The notes: generated by a model not told the origin, from the sequence alone. Counted from the first letter of the stretch, positions 3,601-36,416 are shown. The stretch: DNA of 64,000 bases from an uncultured Methanosarcinales archaeon (GCA_964564925.1 CAZMBY010000001.1:37929-101928), one strand, 5' to 3'. Program-made: numbers and translations.

Positions 3601-6600
3601 CAACGGCACAGGCAACATCTACTACATCAAACAAGTTTATACCGGCAGGCGGCCTGCAAATCAGGCAAAATAATGAATCGAGTGTGAACGGCACTTCAAG
3701 CGAATTTACTCTTATGGTTGATGTTGGCGTAGCTGGGAATTTTTTTGGACTTGTCAGAAAATATGGCAATATTTCAGCAAATCCTGATTACAGCCTGTTG
3801 AGCAACATATCAAGCACAGCACACGTAACCACAATGACAGGTAGATTGCTAGCCATAAGAGTGAAAAGCCCTACTGCCGATGTGACTTTCCCGATGGTCA
3901 ACACTTCTTTTAACATTTCAAGCCCGACAGCAGGCCAAGTGATAAACTTCACAGGCAATGCTACAGACGACATTGGATTGGTTGCAATGAACATAACCTA
4001 TAACCTATCGGGAATCATAACCTATCTTAATTTTTCATTGTCAGGCTTGCCAAAATTCCAGCAAGTGAGCAACGTTACCACACTTCCGGCAACAGCAGCA
4101 GTCCTTAATTTCACTTTGTATGCTACAGACATAGGGAATAATGTTAAGCAGAACAGCACTTTGATCAGTGTGACAACAGTAGACCAATTTCCATCATTAA
4201 AAATCAGCTTCAATCTTTCCTCCATACAGCAAGGGAATGTAATAAACTTTTCAGCCAATGCAACAGATGATGCTGGATTATTATTTATTAATTTGACAAA
4301 CAACCAGTCAGGGTCAGGGCAATTTATGAATTATTCAGTTTCTGGAATATCCTATAATGTTAGCAACACAACTTCTATAACTGCTGCCGCTGGAAATGTC
4401 ATCAACTTCACAGCTTATGCAACCGACTCAATAAACCAAGTCACTCAATTAAGCCAGTTGTTTACTGTTATTGAGAGCGCTGCACCTGTTGTCAACACTA
4501 CATTCAATATTTCATCTCCATTAATTAACAACGTGATTAACTTCACAGGAAACATAACAGATGAGAGTGGATTGCTGATGGCAAACATAACATGGAACAT
4601 AAGCGGGATAATCACTTATTCCAATTATACAATTAGTGGAACATCTGCACAAGTCAGCAATGCAACTCAATTAACATCATCTGGAGTATTCAATTTCACG
4701 ATGTTTGCTACAGACACAAGCAATAATGTCAAGCAGAATTCAACTTTGATAATAGTGCCATTTGGCACCTTCTACGTCAACATAAGCCTGCCATTAAATA
4801 ATTCGCAAGTTACAGTTAATACAACATTTTCCTTAATTGCCAATGTAACCTGTAAAAATGCAGATTGCGGCGTTGTTCAGGGGCTTGCAAGGTATAACGA
4901 TAGTGGAAGCAATATCAGCAACAAGAGCATTAGCACTGTAAAATTTGCAACTCCATTGTTTATTAATGGCTCTGGAAGCGGCATTAAGCAATACAATTTT
5001 GGCGGTGTCACCTATCCTGCAGCCATTACATCGAGTAATGCAACTTATGGGTATCATACTTCAACAAAACCACAATTTGTAAATTTAACATCAGAAACAG
5101 AATTTGGTGGTGGAGGGAACACTGCAAATAATTATACTAATATTTCAAGCTTGGATGAAGTTTATGCACTATCTACCGGAGGCTCTAGTAGATTTGTTGC
5201 ACATAAATTCATATTCAAAATTAATGAATCTGAAAGTGCGGTTTCAAAATTGACAATATTTTGGAATGGGACAGGAGGACGCTCAGGGGGCGATTTAGGC
5301 GGTCCTGATGTTAATATCAACTTATCAATTTGGGATAGCAATGCTTGGGAAGTTTTGGGAAATTGTACTAAACCTAATGTTAATCCTATTACAGATTCTG
5401 GTTGTGTGATTAACTCTACCATAATAACAAACATTGGAAATTATATCAATGAAACAGATAACAACGCAGTCTACATATTAGCTATATCATCATTCAGTGG
5501 ACAAGGTGGTCCTGGCGGTTATACCAGTGCTGTTAAAACCAACTACATAGAACTCAATGTTACTTCCACAGCACAAAACCCGCTCTCATGCGGCAATATG
5601 CTCCAAAACGACCAGTGCCAGTTGAACTGGACGATTAATGCTAGCGGTGATGTTGGCTCTCAATTAGTTGTTGATGTCAACTTCAGCTCTGACAATGCAA
5701 ATGTTGCTGCGAATGACACAGAGGATCATTTGATTATAATTGTCGGTGCAGCAGACACAACATTCCCAATAGTAAACACATCATTCAATATTTCATCTCC
5801 ATTAATTAACAATGTGATTAACTTTACTGGAAATATAACTGATGAGACTGGGTTGTTGATGGCAAACATAACATGGAACATAAGCGGGATAATCACTTAT
5901 TCAAACTACACAATCAGCGGAACTTCCGCTCAAGTAAGCAATGCAACTCAATTAACTTCATCCGGAGTATTCAATTTTACAATGTATGCTACTGATACTA
6001 ACAACAATGTAAAGCAGAATTCAACTTTGATAATAGTGCCGTTTGGTGGCTTACTTATCAACATAAGCCTGCCACTAAATAATTCGCAAGTAGTTGCTAA
6101 TACAACATTTTCCTTAATTGCTAATGTAACCTGCAAGAATGCAGATTGCGGCGTTGTTCAAGGAATTGCAAGGTACAACGATTCAGCAAGCAATGTTTCA
6201 AACAAGTCGATAAGCATAACATTTGGAGCAACTCCATTGTTTGTGAATGGCACAGGAGAGGTCATTAAACATTATGATTTTGGAGGAATCACTTATCCTT
6301 CTCCAGTTGCTTTAAGCAATGCAACATACGGCAATCATACTTCCACAAAGCCAGATTCCATAAATTTATCAGGGGAGTCTGAATTTGGAAGTGGTGGAAG
6401 CCTAAATATTAATTATTCAAATATCTCATCTCTTGATGATGTATTTGCTAAAACAAGGGACAACACTGCTAAGTTCGCAGCGCAAAAATTCACTTTCAAA
6501 ATCAATGAGTCCGAGGATGCAATATCCAGCTTAAAAATTCTTTGGAACGGTACAGGTGGTCGAGGAGCAGAAGGCGATTCACAAGGTGTGAATGTCAACG

Positions 6601-9600
6601 TTTCAATTTGGAATAGTAATGCTTGGGAGGCGATTGGAAACTGCACAAAACCGAGCGTAGACGCAAGTAGTGATACTGGCTGTGTCATAAATATATCCAT
6701 CACCTCAAATATTGCTAACTACATAAATGAAACGGACAATAATGCAGTTTATATATTGGCGTTATCAATGTTTCCTGGAAGCTTTGGAAGAGTGAGTGTG
6801 GTCAGGACCAACTATATAGAATTGAATGCAACAACTACAGCAGCAAATCCTCTTTCCTGCGGCAATATGCTCCAAAACGACCAGTGCCAGCTAAACTGGA
6901 CGATTAATGCAAGTGGGGATGTTGGCTCTCAGTTAGTTGTTGATGTCAACTTTAGCTCTGACAATGCAAATGTTGTTGCGAATGACACAGAAGATCATTT
7001 GATTACAATTGTAGGTGCAGCAGACACAACTCCACCAATCGTGAACACAACATTGAATGCAACAACAGGAGCAGATGGGTATCAATTCACTTCAAGGAAT
7101 ATAGATGTCTTGAACTTTACGGGAAATGTGACTGATGAGACAGCTTTGCTGTCTGCAAACTGGACAGTAAACTTCTCAAGCAACAAGCAGTTCATGAACT
7201 ACACTTTGTCTGGAACAAGTGCGCAGGCAAGCAACACAACGGATTTAAGGGGATTGGTTAATGGAAGTGTATTGAACTTTACATTATTTGCAACTGATAC
7301 TTCAAATAATGTAAAACAAAATTCTACTCTGCTGATCGTTACTGACGCTTTAGTGCCTGTTGTGAATACAACCTTAAATGCAACTCCAAGAATAAAAGAT
7401 GTCATAAACATAACAGCAAACATAACTGATGAAACAAGAATAATGACTGCTAACATAACAATCAACTTCACAACAGGGACTGTATACGTAAATTTCACTT
7501 CGACAAGCGCATCATCACAATTCAGCAACTCAAGCCAGATCCCAGACAACTGTGTTGGAGGCTGTGTGATAAACTACACAGTTTATGCCACAGACACGAG
7601 CAATAATGTTAAGCAAAACTCAACTGTTGTGACGGTTATAGACAATGTGTTCCCGATAGTAAATACTACATTCAATAAAACAAACCCTGCGGTTAATGAC
7701 ATAATCAACATCTCAGGAAACATAACGGATGAAACTGGCTTGCTTTCGGCGAACATCACATGGAACATATCAGGCATAATAACTTATTCAAACTATACTC
7801 TTTCCGGAACCTCGGCCCAATTATCCAATTCCACTGCCTTAGCCTGCACTGAGTCTTGTGTTATAAACTTTACAATGTATGCCACAGATGCATCTGCCAA
7901 TGTCAAGCAGAACAGCACATTGCTTATTATAAATGATTTAACTGCACCAGTTGCCAATACAACTTTTAACTCAACAATCCCAAGAAATATAGACATAATT
8001 AATTTCAGTGGCAATATAACTGACGGGATAGGATTGCTTTCTGCAAACTGGACAATAAATTATTCAAATAATAAGATTTACATGAACTATACTTTGTCGG
8101 GAACAACTGCGCAAGTGAGCAACACAACTGATTTAAGGGGATTGGTTAATGGAAGTGTATTAAACTTTACTTTATATGCAACAGACACTTCAAATAATGT
8201 CAAGCAGAATTCAACTCTGCTGATTGTTATTGATTCTTTAGCTCCTGTTGTAAATACGACATTCAATATTTCATCTCCATTCATTAACAACGTGATTAAC
8301 TTTACTGGAAACATAACAGATGAGAGTGGGTTGTTGATGGCAAACATAACTTGGAACATAAGCGGAATGATAACCTATTCTAATTACACTTTATCTGGGA
8401 CTAGCGCACAAGTAAGCAACGCGACAACTTTGCCTTCAACCCCTGCTGTAATTAACTTCACGATGTTTGCTACAGACACAAGCAATAATGTCAAGCAGAA
8501 CTCCACTTTGATTTCCGTAATTGATTTGATCCCAAGGATCAACGCTTCTTTGGATGATGCACTTCCATTCCAATTCTCAAGGGTAAACATGACTGCAAAT
8601 GTCAGCGATGAAACAGGATTGGCTTTCTGCCAGTTCATTGACAACCAAAGCCTCTCTAATGGGGCCAAGACTTACTTCAATACCTCTGTCACTGGAACAA
8701 GCGATCAATGCAGCCAAAACTATACGATAAGATTGGCTGCTGGAAGCGTGATTAACTTTACTGTTATTGTGAATGATACAAATAATAATATTAACGCTAG
8801 TGTTAATAGAAGTGATTCTGGTACTTTACATATTGGGCAGATTATAACTGTTAGATCTAATGCTATTAATAATTGTACCACACTTGATGCTCCAAATTCA
8901 GTTTTTAACTTAACGCAAGATGCAAATAGCGGGGAAACCTGCTTCTACATAGCTGCGAATAATGTAACTCTAGATTGCAAAGGTTTTGAGATTAATTATT
9001 CGCAAAGCGCTGTTGGGTATGGAATTAATATATCAAGCCAGAATTATTCTACTGTTAAAAGCTGCAATATTGTGCAGGCTGATTTATCTTCTGATACGGC
9101 AAATTCTTATGGGGTTTATGTATTTAAGAACTCGAGCAACAATACTTTCTACAATAATACAATAACAACTAGTGGGAGTAATGCTAATGGGGTGCATTTA
9201 ACTTCAACTGCTTATAATAATTCTGTTTATAGCAATACGATAGCAACTAGTGGTGCTGGGATTGGGGTGTATTTACTTTTAACTGCTTATGGCAATAATG
9301 TGCATAATAATAACATAACAATAACAACTAGTGATAGTAACGGGTTTGGGGTGTCTTTAAATTCAAATGCTTATAATAATTCTGTTTATGGCAATACGAT
9401 AATAACTAGCGGGAGTACTGGGTATGGGGTGTATTTACTATCAACTGCTTATAATAATTCTGTTTATAGCAATACGATAGCAACTAGTGGGGGTGTTGGG
9501 ATTGGGGTGTATTTAGACACAACTGCTTATGGTAATAATATTTATAGCAATAACATAACAACTACTGGGAGTAATGGGAATGGTGTGTGTTTAGACACAA

Positions 9601-12230
9601 CTGCTTATGGTAATAATGTATATGATAATAACATAACAACTAGCGGGAGTACTGGGTATGGGGTGTGTTTAGATACAACTGCTTATGGTAATAATATTTA
9701 TAGCAATAACATAACAACTAGCGGGAGTAACGGTTTTGGGGTGTATTTACTATCAACTGCTTATAATAATTCTGTTTATGGCAATACGATTGCAACTAGC
9801 GGGAGTACTGGGTATGGGGTGCGTTTAGCATCGACTACTTATGGTAATAATGTATATGATAATAACATAACAACTAGCGGGGGTAACGGTTTTGGGGTGT
9901 ATTTACAATCAACTGCTTATAATAATTCTGTTTATGGCAATACGATTGCAACTAGCGGGAGTACTGGGTATGGAGTGTATTTACTATCAACTGCTTATAA
10001 TAATTCTGTTTATAGCAATACTATCACAACATCCAATTTGTCCAGTCACGGTATTTATCTAAATAACAATGTTTTCAACAACACAATTTATGGCAACAAC
10101 ATTACAACAAAAAATACAAGCAGTTCTTATAGTATTTACTTGGAAAGGGGCGTAAACAACAATTCATTCTACAGGAATAGGATATCATCATTGGCAGCAG
10201 GAATTGTGATTAACGGAAGCACTCCGACAGATACTGAAGTGACAACATTCAATTCGTTCACAAACGATACAATAGTTCCATGCACAACAGGATGCGCTTC
10301 TAACTACCAAGATATTGTTCTGACAGCAAATGCAACCGATATAACATTCATTAATGCCAGCTTCAACAAGTCAAGAGTTGCATTTAGTCCTTTGGGATTA
10401 GCTGCGCCAAGAGAAAAAAACAACATGACGGTCCAATGGTTCCTTGATGTCAACGTAACAAATTCCTCAAACAATAATCCCATAGCAAATGCACAGGTTG
10501 TTATCAATGACACAAATGGCTTAAATATATTTAATGGCACGACAGATGCAACTGGAGGCATTCCCACACAGCTTGTCACAGAATTTACAATGAACGGCTC
10601 TGTCCCTTGGGGCAATAATGACAGCTGCAGGCAGGTATTAAACACTCTTATAACTGAAAACTTGACTTGCTTCACAACCTACAACATAAGCGTTAATTAT
10701 ACAGGTTATAATAATAACAACACAAAGGCTGATGTTAACAGCAGCAAGTTCTTGAATTTGAGCATGGCGATTATCGCAGACACAACATTCCCAATAGTCA
10801 ACACAACATTAAACGCGACAATTGCATCAGAAGGAACATCTCAGTTCACAGCAAGGAATATAGATGTGATTAATTTCACAGGCAACATCACAGATGAAAC
10901 TGGATTGTTGTCAGCAAACTGGACTGTAAATTTCTCAAACAATAAGCAGTTCATGAACTACACATTATCAGGCACTACAGCGCAAGTGAGCAACACAACT
11001 GATTTAAGGGGATTGGTAAATGGAAGCGTATTGAATTTCACTTTGTATGCAACTGACACTTCAAATAACGTAAAACAAAATTCAACTTTGCTTATCGTGA
11101 CAGACGCTTTAGTGCCTGTTGTTAACACAACTTTCAATATTTCATCTCCATTCATTAACAACGTGATTAACTTTACTGGAAACATAACTGATGAAAGTGG
11201 ATTGAAGTTTGTTAATGTGACTTACAATTTAAGTGGAGTAATAACATACGCAAACTACACTATTTCAGGAACAAGCATACAGATAAGCAATGTCACAACA
11301 TTGTGCAGCTCTGCTTGTGTATTAAACTTCACTATGTTTGCAACTGACACTTCGAGTAATGTCAAGCAGAACAGCACTTTGATCACAGTTACAAACAGAG
11401 CGCCAATAATCAAGCTCAACAACGTGACTGGTTTTGCTGTTGATCCTGTTGAAGCGGGAAATTCAATAATCTTGCTCTCATTCAATGTCACAGATTCTGA
11501 TGGAGCAGCAACAATCAATGCAAGCAAAGCGATTGTCAACCTGACTCTGGGAACAAATGATGGGCAGTTCAGGTTTAACATATCAAGGCCTGATAGCGAC
11601 TCAGAATTTGGCACATGCATCAATCACACAGAACCAGGTCCCGGCTCTGAAACTGCAAGAGTGGTAATAAACTGCACTGTTTTGTTAAGATACTATGAAA
11701 ATTCAAGCTCCAACTGGGTGATTAATATCAGTGTAAAGGATATATCAGGCTCGGCTGCAATAAATGACACTTTGAGATTTACTTATAATGTCTTGTCTGC
11801 GATTTCGTTGCCATACCAATCCATAAACTTCAGCACTGTAAACCTTGGGCAGCAGAATGTGAAGGCGTATCCGCATATCCTGATGAACAACACAGGCAAT
11901 GATGACTTCAACAGGATAAACATGAGCGCAGCTGCACTTGTCGGCACGACAACAGCATCTGAGAGTATTGGAGTCACTAACTTTGGCGTCAACTTGACAA
12001 ACAGCTCAACATCTGAAAACAAATACCTGGCATTCTCTGCTGATGGCACAGTTAATTTGAGAAATCCTCTTAATGGGAGCAACGCCTCTTTATATCACGG
12101 GCATACAAGCGCCTTCGCTCCAAACAATGACAAAGGGAACATAAGCGCTTTCATTTGGGTCAATGTGCCAAGCTCTGGATTGAGCGCGCAATTATACAAC
12201 GCGACCTGGAATATAACTGCTGTTTCTTGA
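615..12230 (+). CDS. Giant (3871 aa) secreted/cell-surface glycoprotein with N-terminal signal anchor, many Ig-like ~86-aa modules, lectin-like domains and an embedded right-handed beta-helix repeat domain
   Basis: Uninterrupted 11.6-kb ORF with an N-terminal hydrophobic segment (YVYAAVLAVILLSAIILI). Roughly 9 N-x-S/T sequons per 86-aa module, e.g. 'TTFNISSPLINNVINFTGNITDESGLLMANITWNISGIITYSNYTISGTSAQVSNATQL...FNFTMFATDTSNNVKQNSTLIIV' repeated more than 10 times. No C-terminal TM. Confidence 0.85.
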   Translation: MNRIQNFEKYGYVYAAVLAVILLSAIILINKPATTGFAVANESSDDKAKSKDINESVEPASKKTIEIPAINVSAVETGNNVTTNETKDKSKEEKQSEKKPEDKTIEIKLDYKSGTLYDSDDDGVETTTGIVDLSVENTKFGWDAKDENLCTRWEVYSIEDAASTILCYGGEKCCEFVNLLSSRPTWNEPFYASYGSYGATLLNIVSAQVLYVDYSLDPNEPFAEVYNSEWENSSVQFFSEYIDFKDTCIDTCLLSGFNESSYKLIFEINNSVLVLDTLTYTTVETIDKVRVDVDVKDSEGIASGSYSLYKNNDLVTGEYVEPDYYNIEIIPNEKIIDRLVVRLNISKPLTAKIGLDDVTRDISIDYVDIKKTFAASLEDLQFDEAELEATASANSLYRCKQWDFERELCFGSWEKVMDLAAGQQYKLSLAKEAAGFVEGNANITISNATDLIFVANIPNISIVKNGNATINLSQYFSNIGDKTTFTYYLQDNMSILFENDIATIIPGKDFVGRRITFIIGNQSDTVAVSNVFSINLTEENPALKRGKRGPNIFEDEDVQFSRDGIIFETPQGDYLETKIIPDLPTPHSHGYEISRRKLAQKFAFNATNNGIANQLKNKAVNVAYQLNFLHDISGEYLFDKINLKGNRFFFKKDFYCNVQTGSNQYNVKGNILNQNLLEGGESLVINISYSLPADIQKDSVITCYDPVQPNTDYVDGSATLIGTGSPETTLASLGTDIPAGTNAVLVFAYMNTSSASDSDTTFTLRRNGNLILTSAGASQIETTAVAETELWAGVYLDENAPASPLYELNATSTLSNAIIGEAKIAVLNGVTGYYNRSSRTPITVSTTVPTSLAMAKTNLPAGNHTIIAIVEYNMTGAAGRNIAAKGLQLRNVSGNTFSVLAQNEYIIELSSSGAADNSRVAVLTAYDTNAPANAQYNLTSVISGSLVVGTGTILVLDSNNMSIAYSNISNNLGITATNITSYTTDFPADGDSIVIATAQATSTTSNKFIPAGGLQIRQNNESSVNGTSSEFTLMVDVGVAGNFFGLVRKYGNISANPDYSLLSNISSTAHVTTMTGRLLAIRVKSPTADVTFPMVNTSFNISSPTAGQVINFTGNATDDIGLVAMNITYNLSGIITYLNFSLSGLPKFQQVSNVTTLPATAAVLNFTLYATDIGNNVKQNSTLISVTTVDQFPSLKISFNLSSIQQGNVINFSANATDDAGLLFINLTNNQSGSGQFMNYSVSGISYNVSNTTSITAAAGNVINFTAYATDSINQVTQLSQLFTVIESAAPVVNTTFNISSPLINNVINFTGNITDESGLLMANITWNISGIITYSNYTISGTSAQVSNATQLTSSGVFNFTMFATDTSNNVKQNSTLIIVPFGTFYVNISLPLNNSQVTVNTTFSLIANVTCKNADCGVVQGLARYNDSGSNISNKSISTVKFATPLFINGSGSGIKQYNFGGVTYPAAITSSNATYGYHTSTKPQFVNLTSETEFGGGGNTANNYTNISSLDEVYALSTGGSSRFVAHKFIFKINESESAVSKLTIFWNGTGGRSGGDLGGPDVNINLSIWDSNAWEVLGNCTKPNVNPITDSGCVINSTIITNIGNYINETDNNAVYILAISSFSGQGGPGGYTSAVKTNYIELNVTSTAQNPLSCGNMLQNDQCQLNWTINASGDVGSQLVVDVNFSSDNANVAANDTEDHLIIIVGAADTTFPIVNTSFNISSPLINNVINFTGNITDETGLLMANITWNISGIITYSNYTISGTSAQVSNATQLTSSGVFNFTMYATDTNNNVKQNSTLIIVPFGGLLINISLPLNNSQVVANTTFSLIANVTCKNADCGVVQGIARYNDSASNVSNKSISITFGATPLFVNGTGEVIKHYDFGGITYPSPVALSNATYGNHTSTKPDSINLSGESEFGSGGSLNINYSNISSLDDVFAKTRDNTAKFAAQKFTFKINESEDAISSLKILWNGTGGRGAEGDSQGVNVNVSIWNSNAWEAIGNCTKPSVDASSDTGCVINISITSNIANYINETDNNAVYILALSMFPGSFGRVSVVRTNYIELNATTTAANPLSCGNMLQNDQCQLNWTINASGDVGSQLVVDVNFSSDNANVVANDTEDHLITIVGAADTTPPIVNTTLNATTGADGYQFTSRNIDVLNFTGNVTDETALLSANWTVNFSSNKQFMNYTLSGTSAQASNTTDLRGLVNGSVLNFTLFATDTSNNVKQNSTLLIVTDALVPVVNTTLNATPRIKDVINITANITDETRIMTANITINFTTGTVYVNFTSTSASSQFSNSSQIPDNCVGGCVINYTVYATDTSNNVKQNSTVVTVIDNVFPIVNTTFNKTNPAVNDIINISGNITDETGLLSANITWNISGIITYSNYTLSGTSAQLSNSTALACTESCVINFTMYATDASANVKQNSTLLIINDLTAPVANTTFNSTIPRNIDIINFSGNITDGIGLLSANWTINYSNNKIYMNYTLSGTTAQVSNTTDLRGLVNGSVLNFTLYATDTSNNVKQNSTLLIVIDSLAPVVNTTFNISSPFINNVINFTGNITDESGLLMANITWNISGMITYSNYTLSGTSAQVSNATTLPSTPAVINFTMFATDTSNNVKQNSTLISVIDLIPRINASLDDALPFQFSRVNMTANVSDETGLAFCQFIDNQSLSNGAKTYFNTSVTGTSDQCSQNYTIRLAAGSVINFTVIVNDTNNNINASVNRSDSGTLHIGQIITVRSNAINNCTTLDAPNSVFNLTQDANSGETCFYIAANNVTLDCKGFEINYSQSAVGYGINISSQNYSTVKSCNIVQADLSSDTANSYGVYVFKNSSNNTFYNNTITTSGSNANGVHLTSTAYNNSVYSNTIATSGAGIGVYLLLTAYGNNVHNNNITITTSDSNGFGVSLNSNAYNNSVYGNTIITSGSTGYGVYLLSTAYNNSVYSNTIATSGGVGIGVYLDTTAYGNNIYSNNITTTGSNGNGVCLDTTAYGNNVYDNNITTSGSTGYGVCLDTTAYGNNIYSNNITTSGSNGFGVYLLSTAYNNSVYGNTIATSGSTGYGVRLASTTYGNNVYDNNITTSGGNGFGVYLQSTAYNNSVYGNTIATSGSTGYGVYLLSTAYNNSVYSNTITTSNLSSHGIYLNNNVFNNTIYGNNITTKNTSSSYSIYLERGVNNNSFYRNRISSLAAGIVINGSTPTDTEVTTFNSFTNDTIVPCTTGCASNYQDIVLTANATDITFINASFNKSRVAFSPLGLAAPREKNNMTVQWFLDVNVTNSSNNNPIANAQVVINDTNGLNIFNGTTDATGGIPTQLVTEFTMNGSVPWGNNDSCRQVLNTLITENLTCFTTYNISVNYTGYNNNNTKADVNSSKFLNLSMAIIADTTFPIVNTTLNATIASEGTSQFTARNIDVINFTGNITDETGLLSANWTVNFSNNKQFMNYTLSGTTAQVSNTTDLRGLVNGSVLNFTLYATDTSNNVKQNSTLLIVTDALVPVVNTTFNISSPFINNVINFTGNITDESGLKFVNVTYNLSGVITYANYTISGTSIQISNVTTLCSSACVLNFTMFATDTSSNVKQNSTLITVTNRAPIIKLNNVTGFAVDPVEAGNSIILLSFNVTDSDGAATINASKAIVNLTLGTNDGQFRFNISRPDSDSEFGTCINHTEPGPGSETARVVINCTVLLRYYENSSSNWVINISVKDISGSAAINDTLRFTYNVLSAISLPYQSINFSTVNLGQQNVKAYPHILMNNTGNDDFNRINMSAAALVGTTTASESIGVTNFGVNLTNSSTSENKYLAFSADGTVNLRNPLNGSNASLYHGHTSAFAPNNDKGNISAFIWVNVPSSGLSAQLYNATWNITAVS
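4480..7030 (+). repeat. Tandem intragenic duplication of a ~1.28-kb (~425-aa) segment within the giant gene (copy 1 ~4480-5756, copy 2 ~5757-7030)
   Basis: The protein segments 'FNISSPLINNVINFTGNITDE...CGNMLQNDQCQLNWTINASGDVGSQLVVDVNFSSDNANV..NDTEDHLI.IVGAADTT' occur twice back to back. They are ~80-85% identical at protein level and carry identical DNA stretches (e.g. 5571-5700 vs 6851-6980). Confidence 0.8.
9105..10200 (+). repeat. Array of ~15 near-identical 66-69-nt (22-23 aa) tandem repeats encoding parallel beta-helix (PbH1/pectate-lyase-like) rungs
   Basis: The protein repeats 'NNSVYGNTIATSGSTGYGVYLLSTAY' / 'GNNVYDNNITTSGSNGFGVYLxSTAY'. The DNA units at 9760-9830 and 9910-9980 are nearly identical. 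Confidence 0.8.
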
Positions 12231-12300
12231 ATCTATTGCAACTGCCCATGAACTACGAGGGAGAATAAATGCCTGAAAAACAAAAAGTTTAGGGGGTTTT

Positions 12301-12840
12301 TTACTCATATAATTCTTTGGGTATACTAAACTCTTTATTGGAAAACACTGTTTCTTCGCATTGGGATATAGCTTTCTTGCAAATATCCGTCATATACTTA
12401 TATTTGCCCATAATTTCCTGGCTCTTGATTGAAGAACCGTATCTGGCTTGTTCCCTTTCATCCACATCTGATTTTTCTGCTTTCTCCCTGTAAACCGTTA
12501 TTCTGTCAATAAAATCATCATCGTATTCTATGAGATTGCTGTCTTTGACATATCTCAGAAAAGCAGCGGTGCATTTTTGGCTTCTGCTTTCTATCCCAAA
12601 TTTTGACAAAATAGCAAGAGCACAATAATAAAGAGTGTAAAACCATTCTTCCGGAATCTTATAGTCAAATCCCTTCTCCTTGTAAAAGTCGCAAAGTTCC
12701 AAGTTCTTCTTTGCCTTGGCAATATACTCTTGTGCTTTTTTATCGTCCTGTGTAATGATAAGCAACCCTTTGTGCTTTTTTCCTTTTTTCTCGTCCTTTA
12801 TTGCTGTTATAAAACAATCTCTGACACTTTCTGGTTTCAT
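12301..12840 (-). CDS. HEPN-domain-like protein, putative toxin partner of the adjacent nucleotidyltransferase
   Basis: 179-aa ORF overlapping the upstream MNT gene by 4 nt. It is helical with a HEPN-like N-terminal helix, 'KKAQEYIAKAKKNLELCDFYKEKGFD'. The R-x(4-6)-H motif was not clearly located, so the call is architectural. Confidence 0.45.
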   Translation of the reverse strand: MKPESVRDCFITAIKDEKKGKKHKGLLIITQDDKKAQEYIAKAKKNLELCDFYKEKGFDYKIPEEWFYTLYYCALAILSKFGIESRSQKCTAAFLRYVKDSNLIEYDDDFIDRITVYREKAEKSDVDEREQARYGSSIKSQEIMGKYKYMTDICKKAISQCEETVFSNKEFSIPKELYE

Positions 12841-13439
12841 TTTCTGGCTATTCTTTTGAAGAATTCAATAAACCTTTCCTGGCCAAATAATACTATGCCT
12901 TTCTTTATTGCATCAATAAATGCCTTATTTGGCTTTTCAAGCTCCTGCTTGAATTCTAGCGGTGTAAAGTTTATAATATGTATTTTCTTGCTTAGGGTTT
13001 TTTGTATATTTTTTATTGTTTCCTCAATTTCTATAAACTTATTTTTTTTTGAGGTTATTCCCAAGACATCGACATCATCAGCTTCCTGCGGTGAATTGAT
13101 TATGCTGCCGTATAGAATAAAAAAATCTCCTTTGCTTTCAAGTTCCGCAAAATTATTTCGCCATCTTTGGTATTTTAAGGCATCTTCAGTCAAATGCAGT
13201 GCCAAATTTTTCTCCACAAGCGGGTTATCCCAATTCAAGCTTATATTGTAAGTGCTTGTTTTTCCGGAGCCGATTTTGGAAAGGATAATAAGCTTTTCAG
13301 ACTTCATTTTCTTAAGGATCTTCCATGTTCCTGGCCTGCTTAATCCAGCCTCATCTGCTAAATAGGTTATAGTTGGCTTTATTGCAGAATCTTTCAATAA
13401 TATTTTCAAAATTTTTGAGTTTGATTTTTTATGCTCCAT
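12837..13439 (-). CDS. Minimal nucleotidyltransferase (MNT/Pol-beta superfamily) with N-terminal winged HTH; putative antitoxin of a HEPN/MNT pair
   Basis: It carries a 'GS-x9-DxD' nucleotidyltransferase motif, 'ILYGSIINSPQEADDVDVLGI'. N-terminal 'ITYLADEAGLSRPGTWKILKKMKSEKLI' is HTH-like. Confidence 0.6.
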   Translation of the reverse strand: MEHKKSNSKILKILLKDSAIKPTITYLADEAGLSRPGTWKILKKMKSEKLIILSKIGSGKTSTYNISLNWDNPLVEKNLALHLTEDALKYQRWRNNFAELESKGDFFILYGSIINSPQEADDVDVLGITSKKNKFIEIEETIKNIQKTLSKKIHIINFTPLEFKQELEKPNKAFIDAIKKGIVLFGQERFIEFFKRIARK

Positions 13440-13527
13440 CGGCTATTTCCTTTTAGTTAATAGTTATTAACTTATCGTTAATAGTATATAAAAATGTTTC
13501 GGTTTTTTCTTTCATATACCGAGCTCT

Positions 13528-13590
13528 GGATTAAGCGCGCAATTATACAACGCAACTTGGAATATAACTGCTGTTTCTTGGATACTACTG
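13528..13590 (+). pseudogene. Orphan remnant of the 3' end of the surface-protein C-terminal cassette
   Basis: 'gagctctggattaagcgcgcaattatacaacgcaacttggaatataactgctgtttcttgg' is ~90% identical to the last ~60 nt of both 615..12230 and 14236..15180 (…SGLSAQLYNATWNITAVS*). It has no upstream ORF. Confidence 0.7.
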
Positions 13591-14235
13591 TATTGCTATT
13601 GAGTTGCGAAGAAGAAAAATAAACCATAACTCATTCATTTTGCTCTTGCTCAAGGCTTGACAATAATTTTTTCAGCTTCAATTTTGGCGTCTAAGTTTTT
13701 ATTGCAGCCCAGACAAGATTGCAGTCAATTCCAAAAATTGCATGATTGCTAAGCACTTTTAGCTTGTCTGCCTTCTTTACCTTAATAATGGTCAAAGCTA
13801 ATGGGTTATACTCAATCACCTTTTCACTTGTGGGATATTGAATTTCAAGTGCCACTTCCAATCATAAACTAGGATTATTTAAATATTTTTCTTGAAGTTT
13901 ACCTCTTTCTTGAAAAATACTCCAGGAAAGGCTCATCCACTTTTGGATGCCGTTTTACCTTTCTTTTCTTTTGCCTCAACATTATAATTATTTTATGAAA
14001 TTCGAATAAACCTTTGCGGATTTCGTTAACAATATTGGCAGTTTAACTTCAAAAAGCAAAACTTTTATATACAACTTATTGAATAAATCATTTATATAAT
14101 ATCTTAAAAGGTATACTTGATCCATATTATAAATAAGTTTCAATAGTTATAGGCCAAAATTGGTTTGTAGCCCATTAGCTTTTTCTTGGCTGTGAATCGC
14201 GGGGGAGTTTTGGGTTTATAACGAAAACCCCGAAA

Positions 14236-15180
14236 ATGATTGTAAGGATAAAAAAGAGGAGCCTGGCATTATTAGTTATACTTGCTATTGTCAGTGTATC
14301 TATAGTGTATGCAGCTTCCACTTCTGTTGTAAAAAAATTTAAGGTTGATCTTGTCATTACAAACAGAAATCCGCAGATTAATGTTTCTAATGTGAGCGGT
14401 TTTTCTGTTGATCCTTCAGAGGGAGGAAATTCAATTGTTTTGATTTCATTCAATGTCACAGACGCAGATGGAGCAGGCAATATAAACGCAAGCACAGCCA
14501 TAGTCAATTTCACGCTTGGCTCTCCGAATGGGCAGCATTACGCCAATGTATCTGCTGTAGCAAGCTCTGAATTCGGAACGTGCATAAACCATAGCGAATC
14601 GAGCACAGTAGTTGTGGTAAATTGCACTGTTGTAGTCCCATATTTCGCTAATTCCAGCTCTATTTGGGTTGTGAATATAAGCATTAGAGATATATTTGGC
14701 GGCTCAGCCACAAATGACACACTAAGGTTTACATATAACATCCTCTCAGCGTTGTCATTGCCCTATTCATTCACCAACTTCAGCACTGTAAACCTTGGGC
14801 AGCAGAATGTGAGGGCGTATCCGCATATCCTGATGAACAACACAGGCAATGATGACTTCAACAGGATAAACATGAGCGCAGCTGCACTTGTCGGCACGAC
14901 AACAGCATCTGAGAGTATTGGAGTCACTAACTTTGGCGTCAACTTGACAAACAGCTCAACATCTGAAAACAAATACCTGGCATTCTCTGCTGATGGCACA
15001 GTTAATTTGAGAAATCCTCTTAATGGGAGCAACGCCTCTTTATATCACGGGCATACAAGCGCCTTCGCTCCAAACAATGACAAAGGGAACATAAGCGCTT
15101 TCATTTGGGTCAATGTGCCAAGCTCTGGATTGAGCGCGCAATTATACAACGCGACCTGGAATATAACTGCTGTGTCGTAA
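14236..15180 (+). CDS. Secreted 314-aa paralog of the giant protein's C-terminal ~290 aa, with its own signal peptide
   Basis: N-terminal signal 'LALLVILAIVSVSIVYAAS'. Residues 40-175 are ~55% identical to the giant protein region 'NRAPIIKLNNVTGFAVDPVEAGNSIILLSFNVTDSDGAATINAS...'. The last ~135 aa are identical to the giant protein C-terminus. Confidence 0.8.
   Translation: MIVRIKKRSLALLVILAIVSVSIVYAASTSVVKKFKVDLVITNRNPQINVSNVSGFSVDPSEGGNSIVLISFNVTDADGAGNINASTAIVNFTLGSPNGQHYANVSAVASSEFGTCINHSESSTVVVVNCTVVVPYFANSSSIWVVNISIRDIFGGSATNDTLRFTYNILSALSLPYSFTNFSTVNLGQQNVRAYPHILMNNTGNDDFNRINMSAAALVGTTTASESIGVTNFGVNLTNSSTSENKYLAFSADGTVNLRNPLNGSNASLYHGHTSAFAPNNDKGNISAFIWVNVPSSGLSAQLYNATWNITAVS
14777..15175 (+). 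repeat. ~400-bp segment ~99% identical to 11827..12225 (3' end of the giant gene)
   Basis: Direct comparison of the two stretches shows one substitution (gaaggcg vs gagggcg) plus differences in the last two codons. Upstream flanks have diverged. Confidence 0.9.
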
Positions 15181-15220
15181 CTAAAAAAATTTATTAATAG
15201 AGCAAATCCTAACTAGGTGA

Positions 15221-15772
15221 ATGAAGCGTTTAATAGTTCTGGCAGCAGCTTTGATGATTGCGATTCCAATTGTAAATTCTCTTGGTGTAGTGTCTGATTA
15301 TTTGGAAGGAAACACTTTGGAGATAACAGAAGGCCAATCAAAGATTTTCAGCATAAGGCTCCAAAATCCAACTGAAAGCGAAATAGCTATTGTTTTGAAT
15401 TACGACAAGGCTTTTATGAAAGCTGTAGACTATAAAGAAGTTTATGTTTTGCCTGCCAAAACATCAGGATACAGGGTATTATTCAATGTAACAGCGCCAG
15501 GCAAGCCAGGCATGTACGCCATAAGCTATACTGTTGGCGAGGTAGAGCCAAGCGGCGGCGGAGGCTTGCCATTGCGCCTTAAGATAAGCAAAAATCTTAA
15601 TCTGAAGGTTGTTGAAGACCCAAACAAGCCAAAAGTCAGCCGCTCTAAGGATGACTTTATGGCAATATTGCTGATGATGGCAATGATTGCAGGCATTTTG
15701 ATAGTGTTTCTGTACAGAAAAAGCCGCAGAAGACATGCCAAAAGGTATACCAATAGAAAAGTAAATAAATGA
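15221..15772 (+). CDS. Small secreted protein with signal peptide and C-terminal TM anchor plus basic tail
   Basis: N-terminal 'LIVLAAALMIAIPIVNS', C-terminal 'ILLMMAMIAGILIVFLYRKSRRRHAKRY'. The ORF is clean, following a GGTGA-like RBS. Confidence 0.55.
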   Translation: MKRLIVLAAALMIAIPIVNSLGVVSDYLEGNTLEITEGQSKIFSIRLQNPTESEIAIVLNYDKAFMKAVDYKEVYVLPAKTSGYRVLFNVTAPGKPGMYAISYTVGEVEPSGGGGLPLRLKISKNLNLKVVEDPNKPKVSRSKDDFMAILLMMAMIAGILIVFLYRKSRRRHAKRYTNRKVNK

Positions 15773-15794
15773 TTAGTGTAAGGTTCTTGTAAAC

Positions 15795-16949
15795 ATGAGA
15801 AAGGCTTTGATATTATTATTTGTGGTTTTGAGCATATTTGTACTGCAAATTAAGCATGCGTACAGCCCATCAGTAGGCATAGGCTTGCAGATAAACTCAA
15901 CAGATAGCGGCTCGTCTTCCTCGACAAGCTCCAGCAGCTCAGGTGGTGGAGGAAGTTCTGGAGGAGCGGGAGGTGGGGGTGGAGGCGAGGTTCTTACACC
16001 AGTTGAGCCGGGATTTACCCTCAATAAGAATTCGCTTAAAGTGGTTTTAAGGCAGGGCGAACAAAAAGAGGATTCCTTTGAAATAAGGAATACCGGCAAC
16101 ACAATACTAGACATATCGACTGACCTTAAGAGCTTGAAGAAGTTTTTATTCTCTCCAACCCAAGACACTTTAAAGAATACATTAAATCCCGCTGAATCTG
16201 AGTCAGTAGACCTTGTCTTTGGCGCTGATGAGGAGATGAAGCCGGATGTTTACAGCGGCGAAATATCAGTAAAAAGCGGAGAATTGGAAAAGATAATCAA
16301 CACAATCATAGAGGTGGAGTCTGCCAAGCCGCTGTTTGATGTTGATGTGCAGGTATTGCCGGAATTCAAAAGCCTATATCCAGGAGACGAGATAACAATC
16401 CAGGTCTCTTTGTTTAATGTCAGGGGGTTTGGAAGGGTTGATGTGCTTATAGAATACTCTATAAGGGATTTTAAAGGCAATGTGATAGCTGCAGAGGAAG
16501 AAACTGTGGCTGTTGAAACCCAAGCCAAGTTTGTAAGGCAACTTTTAGTTCCAAGCGACCTGAAGCCAGGAACTTACATTTCCGCTGTTAAGGTCACTTT
16601 TGGGGATTCGGTGGGGACGAGCTCTGATTTGTTTGAAGTCAAAGCCAAAACCATAAAGCTGTATCCCACATTGCTGAAGAATTATAAGCCATATTTATTT
16701 GTTGGAATTGCATTTGCAGTCCTAGTGGCTTTTTTTCTTATAAGGTATGAATTCAATCCGAGAAAAAGGTATGTTCCTGTTACAAAAGAAGGTGCCAAAA
16801 AAGTGATTAGATCAGAGGCTAAGATGCAGAAACTGGGGAAGGAGCTTCGCGCTATAGAAGGCGCCTATAAATCAGGCTTCATTTCTAAGCAAACTTACTT
16901 AAAAGACAAGATTAGGGTGGAAAAAGAGCTGAAAAAGCTGGGGAGATAA
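15795..16949 (+). CDS. Surface protein with signal peptide, poly-Ser/poly-Gly linker, beta-rich ectodomain, C-terminal TM and short coiled/SHOCT-like cytoplasmic tail
   Basis: 'ALILLFVVLSIFVLQI' signal, then the 'DSGSSSSTSSSSSGGGGSSGGAGGGGGGE' linker. C-terminal TM 'YLFVGIAFAVLVAFFLI' is followed by '...GAYKSGFISKQTYLKDKIRVEKELKKLGR'. Confidence 0.6.
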   Translation: MRKALILLFVVLSIFVLQIKHAYSPSVGIGLQINSTDSGSSSSTSSSSSGGGGSSGGAGGGGGGEVLTPVEPGFTLNKNSLKVVLRQGEQKEDSFEIRNTGNTILDISTDLKSLKKFLFSPTQDTLKNTLNPAESESVDLVFGADEEMKPDVYSGEISVKSGELEKIINTIIEVESAKPLFDVDVQVLPEFKSLYPGDEITIQVSLFNVRGFGRVDVLIEYSIRDFKGNVIAAEEETVAVETQAKFVRQLLVPSDLKPGTYISAVKVTFGDSVGTSSDLFEVKAKTIKLYPTLLKNYKPYLFVGIAFAVLVAFFLIRYEFNPRKRYVPVTKEGAKKVIRSEAKMQKLGKELRAIEGAYKSGFISKQTYLKDKIRVEKELKKLGR

Positions 16950-31694: not shown

Positions 31695-31719
31695 AGGTAT
31701 AATGGAGTGAATATTTAGA

Positions 31720-32646: not shown

Positions 32647-32689
32647 AAACATAAGATTTTTATATGCATAAACAAAAAATTTTAACAAA

Positions 32690-33835: not shown

Positions 33836-33861
33836 ATTATTTATCAAAAGAGGTGTAGATT

Positions 33862-35541: not shown

Positions 35542-35542
35542 A

Positions 35543-36370: not shown

Positions 36371-36416
36371 CTTGCATGCGAGTTTTTCTCGCGTGCCACA
36401 GCTTCCATTAAGCACA

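Follow-up and report, generated by a model that had tools for sequence, protein, structure and literature searches.

Evidence for recurrent, domain-restricted gene conversion between a giant surface protein and its small secreted paralog in DPANN archaea

Gene content of the operon

The DNA analyzed here, a 64,000-nt stretch referred to as the window, belongs to a tiny DPANN (Woesearchaeota-type) archaeon. It contains an operon, on the plus strand, whose order is HTH regulator, giant and/or small surface protein, 183-aa membrane protein, and a membrane protein of approximately 600 aa (384 aa here). The first gene (109..618) encodes a protein of 169 aa that contains two HTH repeats resembling sigma-70 region 4 (Pfam Sigma70_r4_2, below threshold) and overlaps the start of the giant gene by 4 nt; its homologs lie 5' of module genes at other loci. 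The giant gene (615..12230) encodes a 3871-aa surface protein. In this protein, an N-terminal hydrophobic segment (aa 9-35) precedes TTGFAV, Ig-like repeats of approximately 97 aa and 26-aa beta-helix repeats come next, and a two-domain module, D1-D2, forms the C-terminus; 265 NxS/T sequons are present. The linker strand and D1 (11334..11804) belong to a giant-type lineage and are followed by D2 (11805..12227).

The small gene (14236..15180) encodes a secreted paralog of 314 aa consisting of a Sec-type signal peptide, a conserved amphipathic strand, D1, and D2 (14755..15177). The N-terminal strand and linker, KFKVDLVITNRNP (14335..14373), follow the family motif F-x-V-x-[LIV]-x-[IV]-x-N-x-x-P, which is conserved after the predicted signal-peptidase site in 147 diverse stand-alone members, where the information content of the strand equals or exceeds that of the domains. 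In the giant, the counterpart of this strand is the last strand of the Ig repeat preceding D1. D1 is predicted to be Ig-repeat-like and D2 a pilin/PapD-like beta-sandwich; the closest folds to D2 are donor-strand pilins and PapD-like domains, although these matches are weak. D2 contains approximately 10 N-glycosylation sequons, and its extreme C-terminal strand is its best-conserved stretch. Both proteins end in ...WNITAVS with no C-terminal hydrophobic segment, as the original prediction had noted in stating that neither has a C-terminal TM region. Its statement that no described archaeal sorting system is evident also agrees with our searches, since the module has no sequence match in Pfam, NCBIfam, or the PDB.

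The two genes that follow encode single-pass membrane proteins. The 183-aa protein (p183; 15221..15772, plus strand) has a signal peptide, one beta-sandwich, a C-terminal TM region (aa 144-167), and a basic tail, and contains hardly any N-glycosylation sequons (0.7 per 100 aa versus 6.5 for the module). The 384-aa protein (p384; 15795..16949, plus strand) comprises a signal peptide, a Ser/Gly-rich linker, two Ig-like domains, and a TM region (aa 297-320) that leads into a helical tail on the cytoplasmic side. Its ortholog in other operons is the fourth gene product of approximately 600 aa (p596), relative to which p384 is shortened at the N-terminus. One p596 homolog carries the submitter's label 'Surface layer protein B SlgB-2', an unverified automatic name. 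In an AR20-like genome, the operon lies in the core genome and adjoins ribosomal genes.

Near-identity of the giant and small genes is restricted to D2

The 3' ends of the giant and small genes had been predicted to be near-identical over approximately 400 bp, and nucleotide alignment bears this out: 11826-12223 and 14776-15173, both on the plus strand and offset by 2950 nt, are identical at 397 of 398 positions, and the coordinates first assigned to the two long copies are correct. The lone mismatch in the tract is position 11863 (Lys/Arg), leaving a perfect run of 360 nt (11864-12223). The last two codons of the genes differ only synonymously, the stop codons are TGA (giant) and TAA (small), and the 3' end of the tract coincides with loss of homology at the stop codon. 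Just 5' of the tract (11660-11820), nucleotide identity is 66%. The sharp drop in protein identity anticipated upstream is real, although D1 is 62% identical between giant and small rather than the approximately 55% proposed. Similarly, conversion is confined to the C-terminal domain of approximately 135 aa, as suggested, but homology spans D1 and D2: residues 24-314 of the small protein align with residues 3574-3871 of the giant at 76% identity, which covers the entire mature small protein. Thus, the mature 314-aa protein is a paralog of the C-terminal 298 residues of the giant, of which only D2 is homogenised. A tblastn search of the window with the small protein found three places only, which are the giant end, the small gene, and an orphan fragment between them.

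We asked whether a single D2 sequence could have been placed twice by the assembler. A perfect repeat of 360 nt exceeds typical k-mers, and bubble popping could raise identity slightly. However, mismatches are retained, stop codons and flanks differ between the copies, and the same pattern (89-98.5% identity) is found in at least six unrelated assemblies. Moreover, an independent Logan contig from run SRR12113385, identical to window positions 15144-16890, breaks exactly at the repeat end. Its first position lies exactly 30 nt (k-1) ahead of the point where giant and small first differ, as expected if a de Bruijn graph branched where a true repeat ends. Assembly duplication, named at the outset as a result that would overturn the prediction, is thereby ruled against, and we give it a practically negligible chance.

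D2 is homogenised repeatedly across genomes

The proposal that conversion was recent is borne out by synonymous sites, as dS within the window is 0.045 for D2 while D1 is saturated (>1.1 in all genomes compared). Other genomes have within-genome D2 dS values of 0.23-0.24 (L002, L022) or 0.5-0.65 (L009, L014, L030), and the ages of last conversion vary widely overall, from dS 0.045 to >1. That conversion is repeated, as also proposed, is supported by neighbor-joining trees: the giant and small copies of D2 from one genome cluster as sister sequences in 11 of the 12 genomes, with bootstrap values of 90-100%, whereas D1 in a clade of seven genomes groups giants with giants and smalls with smalls. 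The identity step at the D1/D2 boundary occurs in independent lineages. D2 identity within a genome is 85-98%, compared to a best between-genome value of 52-75%, and D1 and D2 do not differ in mean between-genome identity (36-43% and 38-39%, respectively). The D2s overwrite each other repeatedly, which leaves them near-identical within a genome with D1-like divergence between genomes. Indeed, D2 diverges at least as fast as D1 when the window is compared with L001 (58% identity in D2 versus 70% in D1) or L007 (52 versus 69%).

D2 identity also exceeds D1 identity in additional giant/small pairs from metagenomes, and between the L001 small protein and the L012 giant, which lie on different contigs of one genome (D1 53%, D2 85%). 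The excess is only slight in L015 and L031 and missing in L033 (D2 61%, D1 64%). D1 adjoins the converting tract with 65-77% DNA identity, yet has long kept type-specific orthology. Judging from these trees and distances, the D2 pattern reflects long-term, recurrent gene conversion confined to one domain, and the giant and small forms are old paralogs whose D1 lineages are separate across genomes. The tract in the window is the latest episode of this long-running process.

The orphan 3' end is one arm of a repeat around an inserted cassette

A third copy of approximately 60 bp had been placed at 13528-13590 and regarded as a further product of cassette exchange. The copy exists, but local alignment puts its core at 13514/13519-13583 (90-92% identity) within a wider match at 13500..13620 (plus strand; about 65-120 nt overall) that includes approximately 45 nt of the giant's 3' flank past the stop. 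Its stop codon is mutated from TGA to TGG. This segment aligns with 12146..12270 (plus strand), the last approximately 85 nt of the giant gene plus approximately 45 nt of flank, and the two are the right and left arms of a direct repeat. Between them, on the minus strand, lie a 179-aa ORF with no family match (12301..12840) and a toxin-antitoxin-like gene for a 200-aa winged-HTH and nucleotidyltransferase protein (MNT-like; 12837..13439; Pfam HTH_24, Polbeta, and NTP_transf_2 just below threshold), which form a two-gene cassette. The same repeat-bracketed arrangement is found in two further genomes. Thus, the orphan is the far copy of a duplicated giant 3' end, with the toxin-antitoxin-like cassette inserted between the two copies, and it stands outside the D2 conversion mechanism; it is not a decayed third paralog.

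CDI/Rhs polymorphic toxin loci likewise combine a gene for a large surface or secreted protein with small two-gene cassettes and short repeats from its 3' region, both located downstream. CDI/Rhs orphans are alternative toxin tips with immunity genes that follow a stretch of 5' homology. Here, by contrast, the repeat takes in no alternative tip but only flank and the last approximately 65-95 nt of coding sequence, and the pairs are generic, toxin-antitoxin-like, and on either strand.

The module is a two-domain unit of a conserved operon

The module family comprises 1938 clusters at 50% identity. In the best 150 of these, D2 always occurs with D1, either as a stand-alone protein of approximately 300 aa or at a giant's end, although some giants carry the module internally (P0138, P0154, P0160, P0171). 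Giants bearing the same C-terminal module are present in other genomes, and in several other lineages the giant begins with a long cytoplasmic stretch ahead of a TM region. Genomes contain one to three module copies, at a single locus in 25 of 28 scanned. The module is a two-domain extracellular unit of a conserved DPANN operon, which occurs as a giant's end or as a stand-alone, Sec-secreted form of approximately 315 aa.

p183 is the invariant next gene 3' of the module, and wherever downstream sequence is available, the last module gene is directly followed by p183 and then p596 homologs. This applies to loci at which the last module gene is a giant (L011, L018, L020), to those with a small gene and no giant (L027, L032, L034, L035), and to those with both. 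Some operons are giant-only, with no small subunit. A co-occurring protease or sortase had been proposed as a check, but no such gene is a conserved neighbor at the loci compared; what is conserved next to the module is p183 and p596, both single-pass membrane proteins that contain Ig-like domains.

Alternative roles for D2

The original prediction made D2 a candidate C-terminal sorting or anchoring signal, analogous in logic to the T9SS CTD of Bacteroidota. Spelled out, this reading has D2 as a free-standing tag for a new archaeal route of secretion or attachment, which dedicated machinery would recognise and might remove and which several cargos would share. Like that CTD, D2 is an Ig-like beta-sandwich that forms the very C-terminus of surface proteins, here two of different size, which have N-terminal Sec-type signals and lack a C-terminal TM; the last strand of D2 is its most conserved. 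The T9SS CTD is carried by dozens of unrelated cargos per genome and is removed by PorU. D2, in contrast, always accompanies D1 in the best 150 family clusters and lies within one operon at one to three copies per genome, a low copy number of the kind named at the outset as overturning the prediction, which does not support a general tag of this kind; both proteins already carry Sec-type signals, some giants hold the module internally, a protease or sortase neighbor is not conserved, and T9SS genes and an outer membrane are lacking. Copy number and architecture largely refute a general sorting tag and the new targeting system built on it, which we judge very improbable, while an anchoring or docking role stays plausible. 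Archaeosortase substrates (PGF-CTERM/PEF-CTERM) also tie an archaeal C-terminal element to surface attachment of glycoproteins. Their signals consist of a short motif, a TM helix, and a basic tail, unlike ...WNITAVS, and the NCBIfam models are unmatched. In another reading, an N-terminally TM-anchored giant would hold D1-D2 at its far tip, where D2 would bind a host or kin receptor, and the secreted small protein, soluble or base-displayed for example, would share a specificity that copying keeps single per genome. DPANN archaea are thought to rely on host attachment, and the giants with cytoplasmic N-terminal domains and the rapid divergence of D2 among close relatives fit. This reading leaves the invariant p183-p596 and the small-only operons unexplained, and a D2 with some 10 sequons and a pilin/PapD-like rather than lectin-like predicted fold speaks against it; we find it quite improbable.

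D2 could also be the putative acceptor of a donor strand. A chaperone-free surface filament would be built with the small protein as its shaft, each N-terminal amphipathic strand entering the D2 of the preceding subunit; p183 and p596 would be the membrane base or terminator, and the giant, which has D2 without a free donor strand, the tip adhesin (FimH/PapG logic). D2 would have to stay identical for the two copies to take up one and the same strand. The conserved strand motif supports this, as do the strand's unpaired state and lower confidence in the AF2 monomer, sub-threshold PapD-like/ASH/DUF1573 matches in p596, and a Sec signal peptide and adjacent paralog reminiscent of Sulfolobus threads (Saci_0406/0405; PMC9715654). 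However, AF2 predicts D1 and D2 as complete sandwiches with high confidence without the strand, sequence comparison links the module to none of the TasA, DUF1102, thread, and CU pilin families, and giant-only operons indicate that polymerisation is not the universal role of D2. We consider a fibre somewhat unlikely. Compared with chaperone-usher pili (FimH/PapG with FimA/PapA; archaic Csu), there is no usher or periplasmic chaperone, the envelope is archaeal and single-membrane, the shared unit is two-domain, and a groove in the fold is hypothetical; to our knowledge, concerted evolution of a shared domain has not been described for those pili. Archaeal donor-strand filaments (Sulfolobus threads, TasA-like bundling pili, Pyrodictium cannulae) share signal-peptidase-I-type signals, beta-sandwich glycoprotein subunits, and an N-terminal strand right after the cleavage site, and in threads the adjacent paralog was proposed as a cap or minor subunit (PMC9715654). 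Here, homology to them is undetectable, the paralog is a 3871-aa giant, two membrane-anchored Ig-domain neighbors are obligatory, and the filament is putative. Finally, homogenisation might be a neutral by-product of ectopic recombination between nearby paralogous 3' ends, with a generic D2 role and no specific partner. The tract stopping exactly with homology at the stop codon, scattered conversion ages, genomes that lack the D2 excess, and the same 3' end being a hot spot for cassette insertions are consistent with this. It is nevertheless unlikely, given a 5' boundary that matches the domain boundary in independent lineages, homogenisation across contigs (L001/L012), and the persistence of D1 orthology beside the tract.

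A shared docking domain

We favor, with a probability of about 0.5, the reading that D2 serves both proteins as a docking or assembly domain. Through D2, giant and small would both fit one fast-evolving partner surface, which would make D2 conversion tolerated or favored, while conversion of the functionally differentiated D1 would be purged. The likeliest partners would be the ectodomains of p183 and p384/p596, single-pass proteins always found after the last module gene; shared membrane-anchored partners next door are the likeliest reason for both proteins ending in the same domain. The small protein lacks an anchor of its own, whereas p183 and p384 each combine a signal peptide with a C-terminal TM region, and the sequon contrast fits an exposed module atop an unglycosylated membrane-proximal base. 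Against docking, a mirror-tree test of co-evolution with p183 and p596 did not favor D2 over D1 (p183 partial r 0.46 versus 0.49), and L033, L015, and L031 lack a clear D2 excess. The giant may also be anchored by its N-terminus, as giants of other lineages with a cytoplasmic N-terminus and TM region suggest, with D2 possibly at the distal end. D2-limited conversion can moreover sustain itself without positive selection because diverged D1 stops recombining.

The docking arrangement resembles the Sulfolobales S-layer, in which a heavily N-glycosylated outer protein without a C-terminal anchor (SlaA canopy) is co-encoded with a single-pass holder (SlaB anchor). It differs in having no homology to these proteins or to DUF1608 and in having four components, including a giant adhesin-like protein; a lattice is hypothetical here. 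Under docking, one membrane-anchored surface base would take up either the adhesin-like, heavily glycosylated giant or the small protein.

The giant and small genes share a two-domain module

The window has a G+C content of 40% and carries on its plus strand the giant gene, an open reading frame (ORF) of 3871 aa at 615-12230 that encodes a surface protein, and the small gene, an ORF of 314 aa at 14236-15180 that encodes a secreted paralog. Nucleotide alignment bears out the original prediction that the 3' ends of these genes are nearly identical. The stretches 11826-12223 and 14776-15173, offset by 2950 nt, differ by one base (11863), and identity is perfect and unbroken over 360 nt (11864-12223). 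The final two sense codons differ synonymously between the genes, the stop codons are also unlike, and identity just 5' of the tract (11660-11820) is 66%. A short third copy of the giant 3' end, referred to here as the orphan, was found where it had been predicted except for slightly corrected coordinates (13514-13583, 90-92% identity), and a tblastn search of the whole window with the small protein returned no places beyond the giant end, the small gene and the orphan.

We considered whether the identity could be produced by assembly. An independent Logan assembly of run SRR12113385 contains a contig identical to window positions 15144-16890, and this contig starts exactly 30 nt ahead of the first difference between giant and small, where a break in a k=31 graph is expected if the reads hold two continuations of a shared sequence. 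This break and the mismatches kept between the copies, together with the appearance of the pattern in other, unrelated assemblies, exclude an assembly artefact, to which we assign a negligible probability.

The sharing had been thought confined to the last ~135 residues. Our data indicate that it is not, since the small protein over its entire mature length (aa 24-314) is 76% identical to giant aa 3574-3871. In an AlphaFold2 model of the small protein (47 homologs, pLDDT 86), a signal-peptide helix precedes two beta-sandwich domains, D1 and D2, together referred to here as the module. The near-identical tract coincides with D2, while D1 is 62% identical between giant and small in the window. 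The giant gene also contains internal repeats, of a 26-aa (78-nt) beta-helix type at 9226-10149 and of an Ig-like type of ~97 aa, and a tandem duplication of ~1.27 kb (4491-5790 versus 5772-7058, 86-87% identity).

The module family is widespread and present in low copy number

The small protein family had no match in Pfam, NCBIfam or a PDB sequence-profile search, and Pfam and NCBIfam returned nothing for the small protein and the giant C-terminus even at E values up to 1-10. A profile search of 1.84 billion cluster representatives found 1938 clusters at E ≤1e-3, with 413 at E ≤1e-30. Among the best 150 of the 1938 clusters, D1 and D2 always occur together, and D2-only matches are short, contig-truncated fragments. 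The majority of these 150 are stand-alone proteins of ~280-340 aa; in the other form, the module lies at, or occasionally near, the C-terminus of proteins of up to 3478 aa. Named homologs in a word-indexed protein search belong to Woesearchaeota or Nanoarchaeota, and a scan of genome contigs adds one Pacearchaeota genome. Several operon-bearing metagenome-assembled genome (MAG) records are titled 'uncultured Methanosarcinales archaeon' (loci L006, L007, L013, L016, L018-L020 and L027); the operon is otherwise seen only in genomes labelled Woesearchaeota, Pacearchaeota or Nanoarchaeota, and these titles may be placeholders or wrong taxonomy.

We scanned 185,579 species genomes for the motif [LIV]NNTGNxDF and found 31 loci in 28 genomes, with two loci in 3 genomes and a single locus in the other 25. 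By this motif-based scan of species-representative genomes, many of them incomplete MAGs, a genome contains 1-3 copies of the module; the window has two copies and one remnant. In open-access papers and preprints we found no description of the module family, of donor-strand systems in DPANN archaea or of concerted evolution of archaeal surface proteins.

D2 undergoes concerted evolution

We compared 12 genomes that contain both a giant and a small gene. Within a genome, giant and small D2 are 60-98% identical (98% in the window, 90% in L002 and L022, 87% in L009, 85% in L014 and 82% in L030), while the best D2 match in any other genome reaches just 38-75%. D1 behaves differently. In the window's clade, the D1 of a giant is nearest to that of other giants (63-85%) and the D1 of a small protein to that of other small proteins (47-75%), and inside one genome the two are only 46-62% identical. 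In 11 of the 12 genomes, neighbour-joining with 200 bootstraps pairs the D2 of the giant with that of the small protein (support 90-100%), whereas the D1 tree contains giant-type and small-type clades for seven genomes. Within-genome dS is saturated for D1 (above 1.1 or not computable). For D2 it is 0.045 in the window, 0.23-0.24 in L002 and L022, 0.5-0.65 in L030, L014 and L009, and about 1 or higher in L004, L015, L024, L028, L031 and L033, a spread that reflects conversion episodes of different age.

DNA identity changes abruptly at the D1/D2 boundary in several independent lineages. Homogenisation of D2 only is also seen across contigs of one genome (L001 versus L012: D1 53%, D2 85%), and in six more metagenomic pairs D2 identity equals or exceeds that of D1. 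These paralogs thus resemble each other within a genome more than they resemble their orthologs, do so at synonymous sites too and have a mosaic boundary, as in concerted evolution. The gene-conversion signature first read from the window sequence therefore holds, with D2 grouping by genome at low dS and D1 grouping by type, and D2 conversion is a long-standing property of the system, not a single event. The D1 trees, which part giant-type from small-type over seven genomes, rule out that D2 identity stems from independent recent duplication. Nor is D2 simply slow-evolving, because mean between-genome identity is alike for D1 (36-43%) and D2 (38-39%) and synonymous sites are homogenised.

Two membrane proteins invariably follow the module genes

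The shared operon begins with a gene for a ~170-aa protein with sigma-70-region-4-like helix-turn-helix (HTH) repeats (109-618). After the giant and/or small gene come p183, encoding a membrane protein of ~180 aa (15221-15772), and p384, a fourth gene encoding 384 aa (15795-16949), whose orthologs of ~600 aa are referred to here as p596. The window's p384 is without the N-terminal ~220 residues of its orthologs (an Ig-like and another domain) and has a Ser/Gly-rich stretch instead. Both p183 and p384 have a signal peptide, one or more Ig-like domains and a single C-terminal transmembrane (TM) segment, and their cytoplasmic tails are basic or helical. In all loci with downstream sequence, p183 and then p596 lie directly 3' of the last module-bearing gene, and this order holds in loci with giant and small genes, in giant-only loci (L011, L018, L020, L017 and L026) and in small-only loci (L027, L032, L034 and L035). 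Ribosomal-protein and tRNA-synthetase genes surround the tightly packed operon of an AR20-like genome. A Lon_C protein is encoded further downstream in some loci and is missing from others.

Pfam, NCBIfam and a PDB sequence-profile search placed p183, p384 and p596 in no known family. All PapD-like/ASH/DUF1573 matches of p596 were sub-threshold, and one p596 homolog bears the submitter's unverified label 'Surface layer protein B SlgB-2'. We rejected p183 as a membrane-anchored paralog of the module (hhalign probability 5.6%). The p384/p596 cytoplasmic tail (window 16800-16946; …YKSGFISKQTYLKDK…) resembles a motif that giants of other lineages have in their long cytoplasmic N-termini (L028, L033, L036 and L038; …SGKITYATYIE…, …RISSAEFNYKL…), which hints at a shared cytoplasmic oligomerisation element; a tail of this type in L002 gave a sub-threshold GvpG match. 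Unannotated ORFs at 27043-37517 surround an ATPase of the type II/IV secretion family (33862-35541, PF00437), and this cluster is probably a type-IV-pilus-like system separate from the module operon.

We found that giant and small contain 6.7-6.8 NxS/T sequons per 100 residues and that the module family averages 6.5 per 100 aa, 2.7 times the compositional expectation. Density is 0.5-0.7 per 100 aa in p183 and 0.3 in the window's p384, with similarly few sequons in the membrane-proximal part of p596. This gradient agrees with an exposed module that is glycosylated and rests on a membrane-proximal base that is not. The window also encodes an AglB/STT3 oligosaccharyltransferase of 1129 aa (49312-52701), consistent with the very high sequon density of giant and small. 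The N-terminus of the window's giant is short, with a single hydrophobic segment and then TTGFAV. This motif, [TI]-x-G-[FL]-[AV]-[VI], also comes after the TM segment in giants elsewhere, some with a cytoplasmic region of ~90-130 aa ahead of it. This hydrophobic segment may be either a cleaved signal or a permanent anchor, which is the main uncertainty over which end of the giant is proximal.

The predicted D2 fold may be pilin-like, and the module lacks hallmarks of known sorting signals

A model of D2 only (92-sequence alignment) reached pLDDT 90.6 and pTM 0.83. Its fold neighbours, with scores in parentheses, include CsuA/B (7.5), CupE (6.5), Caf1 (6.3), the PapE, PapH and PapG pilins (6.0-6.1) and the FimA, FimG, FimI and FimH pilins (5.5-5.8), as well as Saf and CS6. 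A Pyrobaculum bundling pilin (6.0), the cannula protein CanX (5.9), the DUF1102 tube (5.9) and PapD-like/MSP/ASH domains (5.5-6.9) are also among them. Foldseek returned the same protein set for the D2 model, though with nothing significant (E at least 0.02, TM at most 0.51), and we take these model-based neighbours as a lead on topology, not as family membership. Chaperone-usher pilins, TasA-like proteins, threads and cannulae showed no sequence membership in Pfam, NCBIfam or the PDB sequence-profile search.

Among 147 diverse stand-alone members, the predicted signal-peptidase site is followed by a strand, F-x-V-x-[LIV]-x-[IV]-x-N-x-x-P-x-[IV], conserved as strongly as the domains themselves. 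The strand is unpaired in the AlphaFold2 monomer, in which D1 and D2 are both predicted complete, and its counterpart in the giant is the last strand of the preceding Ig-like repeat. A class III (prepilin) signal for the small protein is unlikely, as in the alignment the residue after the KKR motif varies (S/T/V/D/N/R) and the hydrophobic stretch is followed by a P-x-x-Y-A site.

The original prediction read the C-terminal domain as a candidate sorting or anchoring signal comparable to the C-terminal domain (CTD) of the bacterial type IX secretion system (T9SS). As predicted, giant and small have no C-terminal TM segment: a scan of hydrophobic 19-mers found none past the N-terminal signals save a weak one in the window's giant at aa 938-956. 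The module has no sequence match to CTD models (Pfam PF18962 / TIGR04183). T9SS CTDs are found on many unrelated cargo proteins per genome, whereas in the best 150 clusters D2 is always fused to D1, and a genome contains 1-3 copies. T9SS has PorU/PorV/SprA machinery, whereas the only conserved neighbours here are the HTH regulator, p183 and p596, so that the conserved protease or sortase-like gene considered as a possible partner is not among them. Low copy number and, in those clusters, fusion to D1 make a general sorting signal very improbable. Archaeosortase substrates (PGF-CTERM and relatives) carry a C-terminal motif, a TM helix and a basic tail, a combination absent from giant and small, and no NCBIfam CTERM model matched either protein. 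By analogy, the system would work most like pilus adhesins of two domains, one of them an assembly domain in common with the structural subunit. A two-component S-layer, where a membrane stalk holds a glycoprotein that has no anchor, is the alternative; by sequence, the system is a member of neither.

The giant 3' end is an insertion site for cassettes

The orphan matches the giant over 12146-12270 versus 13500-13620, running ~45 nt beyond the stop codon into the giant's flank; the 3' flank of the small gene has no match to it. Between the repeat arms (insert 12301-13439) are two minus-strand genes overlapping by 4 nt, one for a 200-aa winged-HTH and nucleotidyltransferase protein (HTH_24, Polbeta, NTP_transf_2 just below cut-off) and one for a 179-aa partner without a family match; database look-ups of both proteins gave no record. 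The order in L004 is giant end, DUF5615/DUF433 pair, orphan (8605-8771) and DUF3368/UPF0175 pair. In L012 it is giant end, AbiEii/DUF6036-like pair, orphan, PIN-like/UPF0175 pair and second orphan. The inserts in L004 and L012 match toxin-antitoxin families, and bracketed toxin-antitoxin-like cassettes thus recur in three unrelated genomes. The bracketed stretches span window 12146-13620, L004 7668-8771 and L012 10831-13433 (two in series); the direct repeats comprise the last ~65-95 coding nt of the giant gene and ~45 nt of flank, and the cassette families differ.

Since the same arrangement of giant end, cassette and orphan occurs in L004 and L012, the orphan is a by-product of cassette insertion at the giant 3' end. 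A decayed third paralog is ruled out because the orphan matches the giant's post-stop flank and, as in L004 and L012, is one arm of a direct repeat that brackets a cassette. Candidate routes are Campbell-type integration of a circle bearing a copy of the gene end and duplication during repair. The inserts in the window, L004 and L012 contain no recombinase gene, the window has no tRNA or Rfam element that would explain the repeat as an att site, and metagenome contigs searched with an exact 33-nt pattern yielded neither strain variants nor empty sites.

The 650 nt that separate the orphan from the small gene are otherwise non-coding but contain a 56-aa ORF (13691-13861, minus strand), which has no significant family match and may be a decayed cassette gene. 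A 125-aa ORF in L001 (5626-6000) holds only the last ~60 residues of D2, with 81% DNA identity to the small gene 3' end of the same locus; it follows the p596 gene, adjoins a small two-gene cassette (DUF4258) and is a further orphan in a different position. Intein/Hint-like and Laminin-G fragments occur in the giant-bearing region of L012 (6385-8000) along with several small, interleaved cassettes, which suggests heavy rearrangement around the giant gene.

A model for the module operon

We consider it shown that D2 is functionally interchangeable between giant and small and that D1 is not. We infer, with a probability of roughly 0.5, that D2 is a common docking or assembly interface for the two proteins. 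Both would join one surface complex through D2, and this complex would be built on the two invariably adjacent membrane proteins, p183 and p596. Because it has no anchor of its own, the small protein must bind something to stay on the cell, and a D2 that is the same within a genome and diverges quickly between genomes is expected if two ligands fit one co-evolving receptor. Mirror-tree and partial-correlation analyses of D2 versus D1 against p183 and p596 did not discriminate the partner domain.

Another possibility, which we regard as rather unlikely, is a fibre formed by donor-strand exchange or beta-augmentation, in which small would be the shaft and giant the tip adhesin, following the logic of FimH and PapG. 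The fold neighbours of D2 and the conserved free strand make this reading attractive; however, the D1 and D2 folds are apparently complete as predicted, and giant-only operons exist. Slightly less probable still is that D2 identity is a neutral by-product of recombination, and we doubt further that D2 is a distal host-binding head.

We rate the module operon as an uncharacterised, widespread DPANN surface operon with a domain-restricted signature of concerted evolution. The abundant and mostly uncultured DPANN archaea are believed to live attached to other cells, and to our knowledge almost nothing is known of the envelope or attachment machinery of Woesearchaeota and Pacearchaeota. We tentatively propose that the operon might encode an undescribed, DPANN-wide surface organelle, the attachment apparatus of Woesearchaeota- and Pacearchaeota-type archaea. 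Here a p183 and p596 base would hold or polymerise either a short subunit or a multi-thousand-residue adhesin via a conversion-maintained, pilin-like C-terminal domain. The adhesin 3' end would act as an att-like landing pad on which toxin-antitoxin cassettes accumulate; with every insertion, the gene end would be restored and an orphan left behind.

An odd repeat has thus become a defined, testable four-gene surface system with approximately 1900 sequence clusters and no family annotation, in which the roles of the domain that docks and the partners that anchor are now posed for test. The giant 3' end is a recurrent insertion site for toxin-antitoxin cassettes. D2 conversion provides a clean prokaryotic case in which concerted evolution has stayed within one domain over long periods, and D2 being alike within and unlike between genomes is a natural experiment that predicts genome-specific compatibility.
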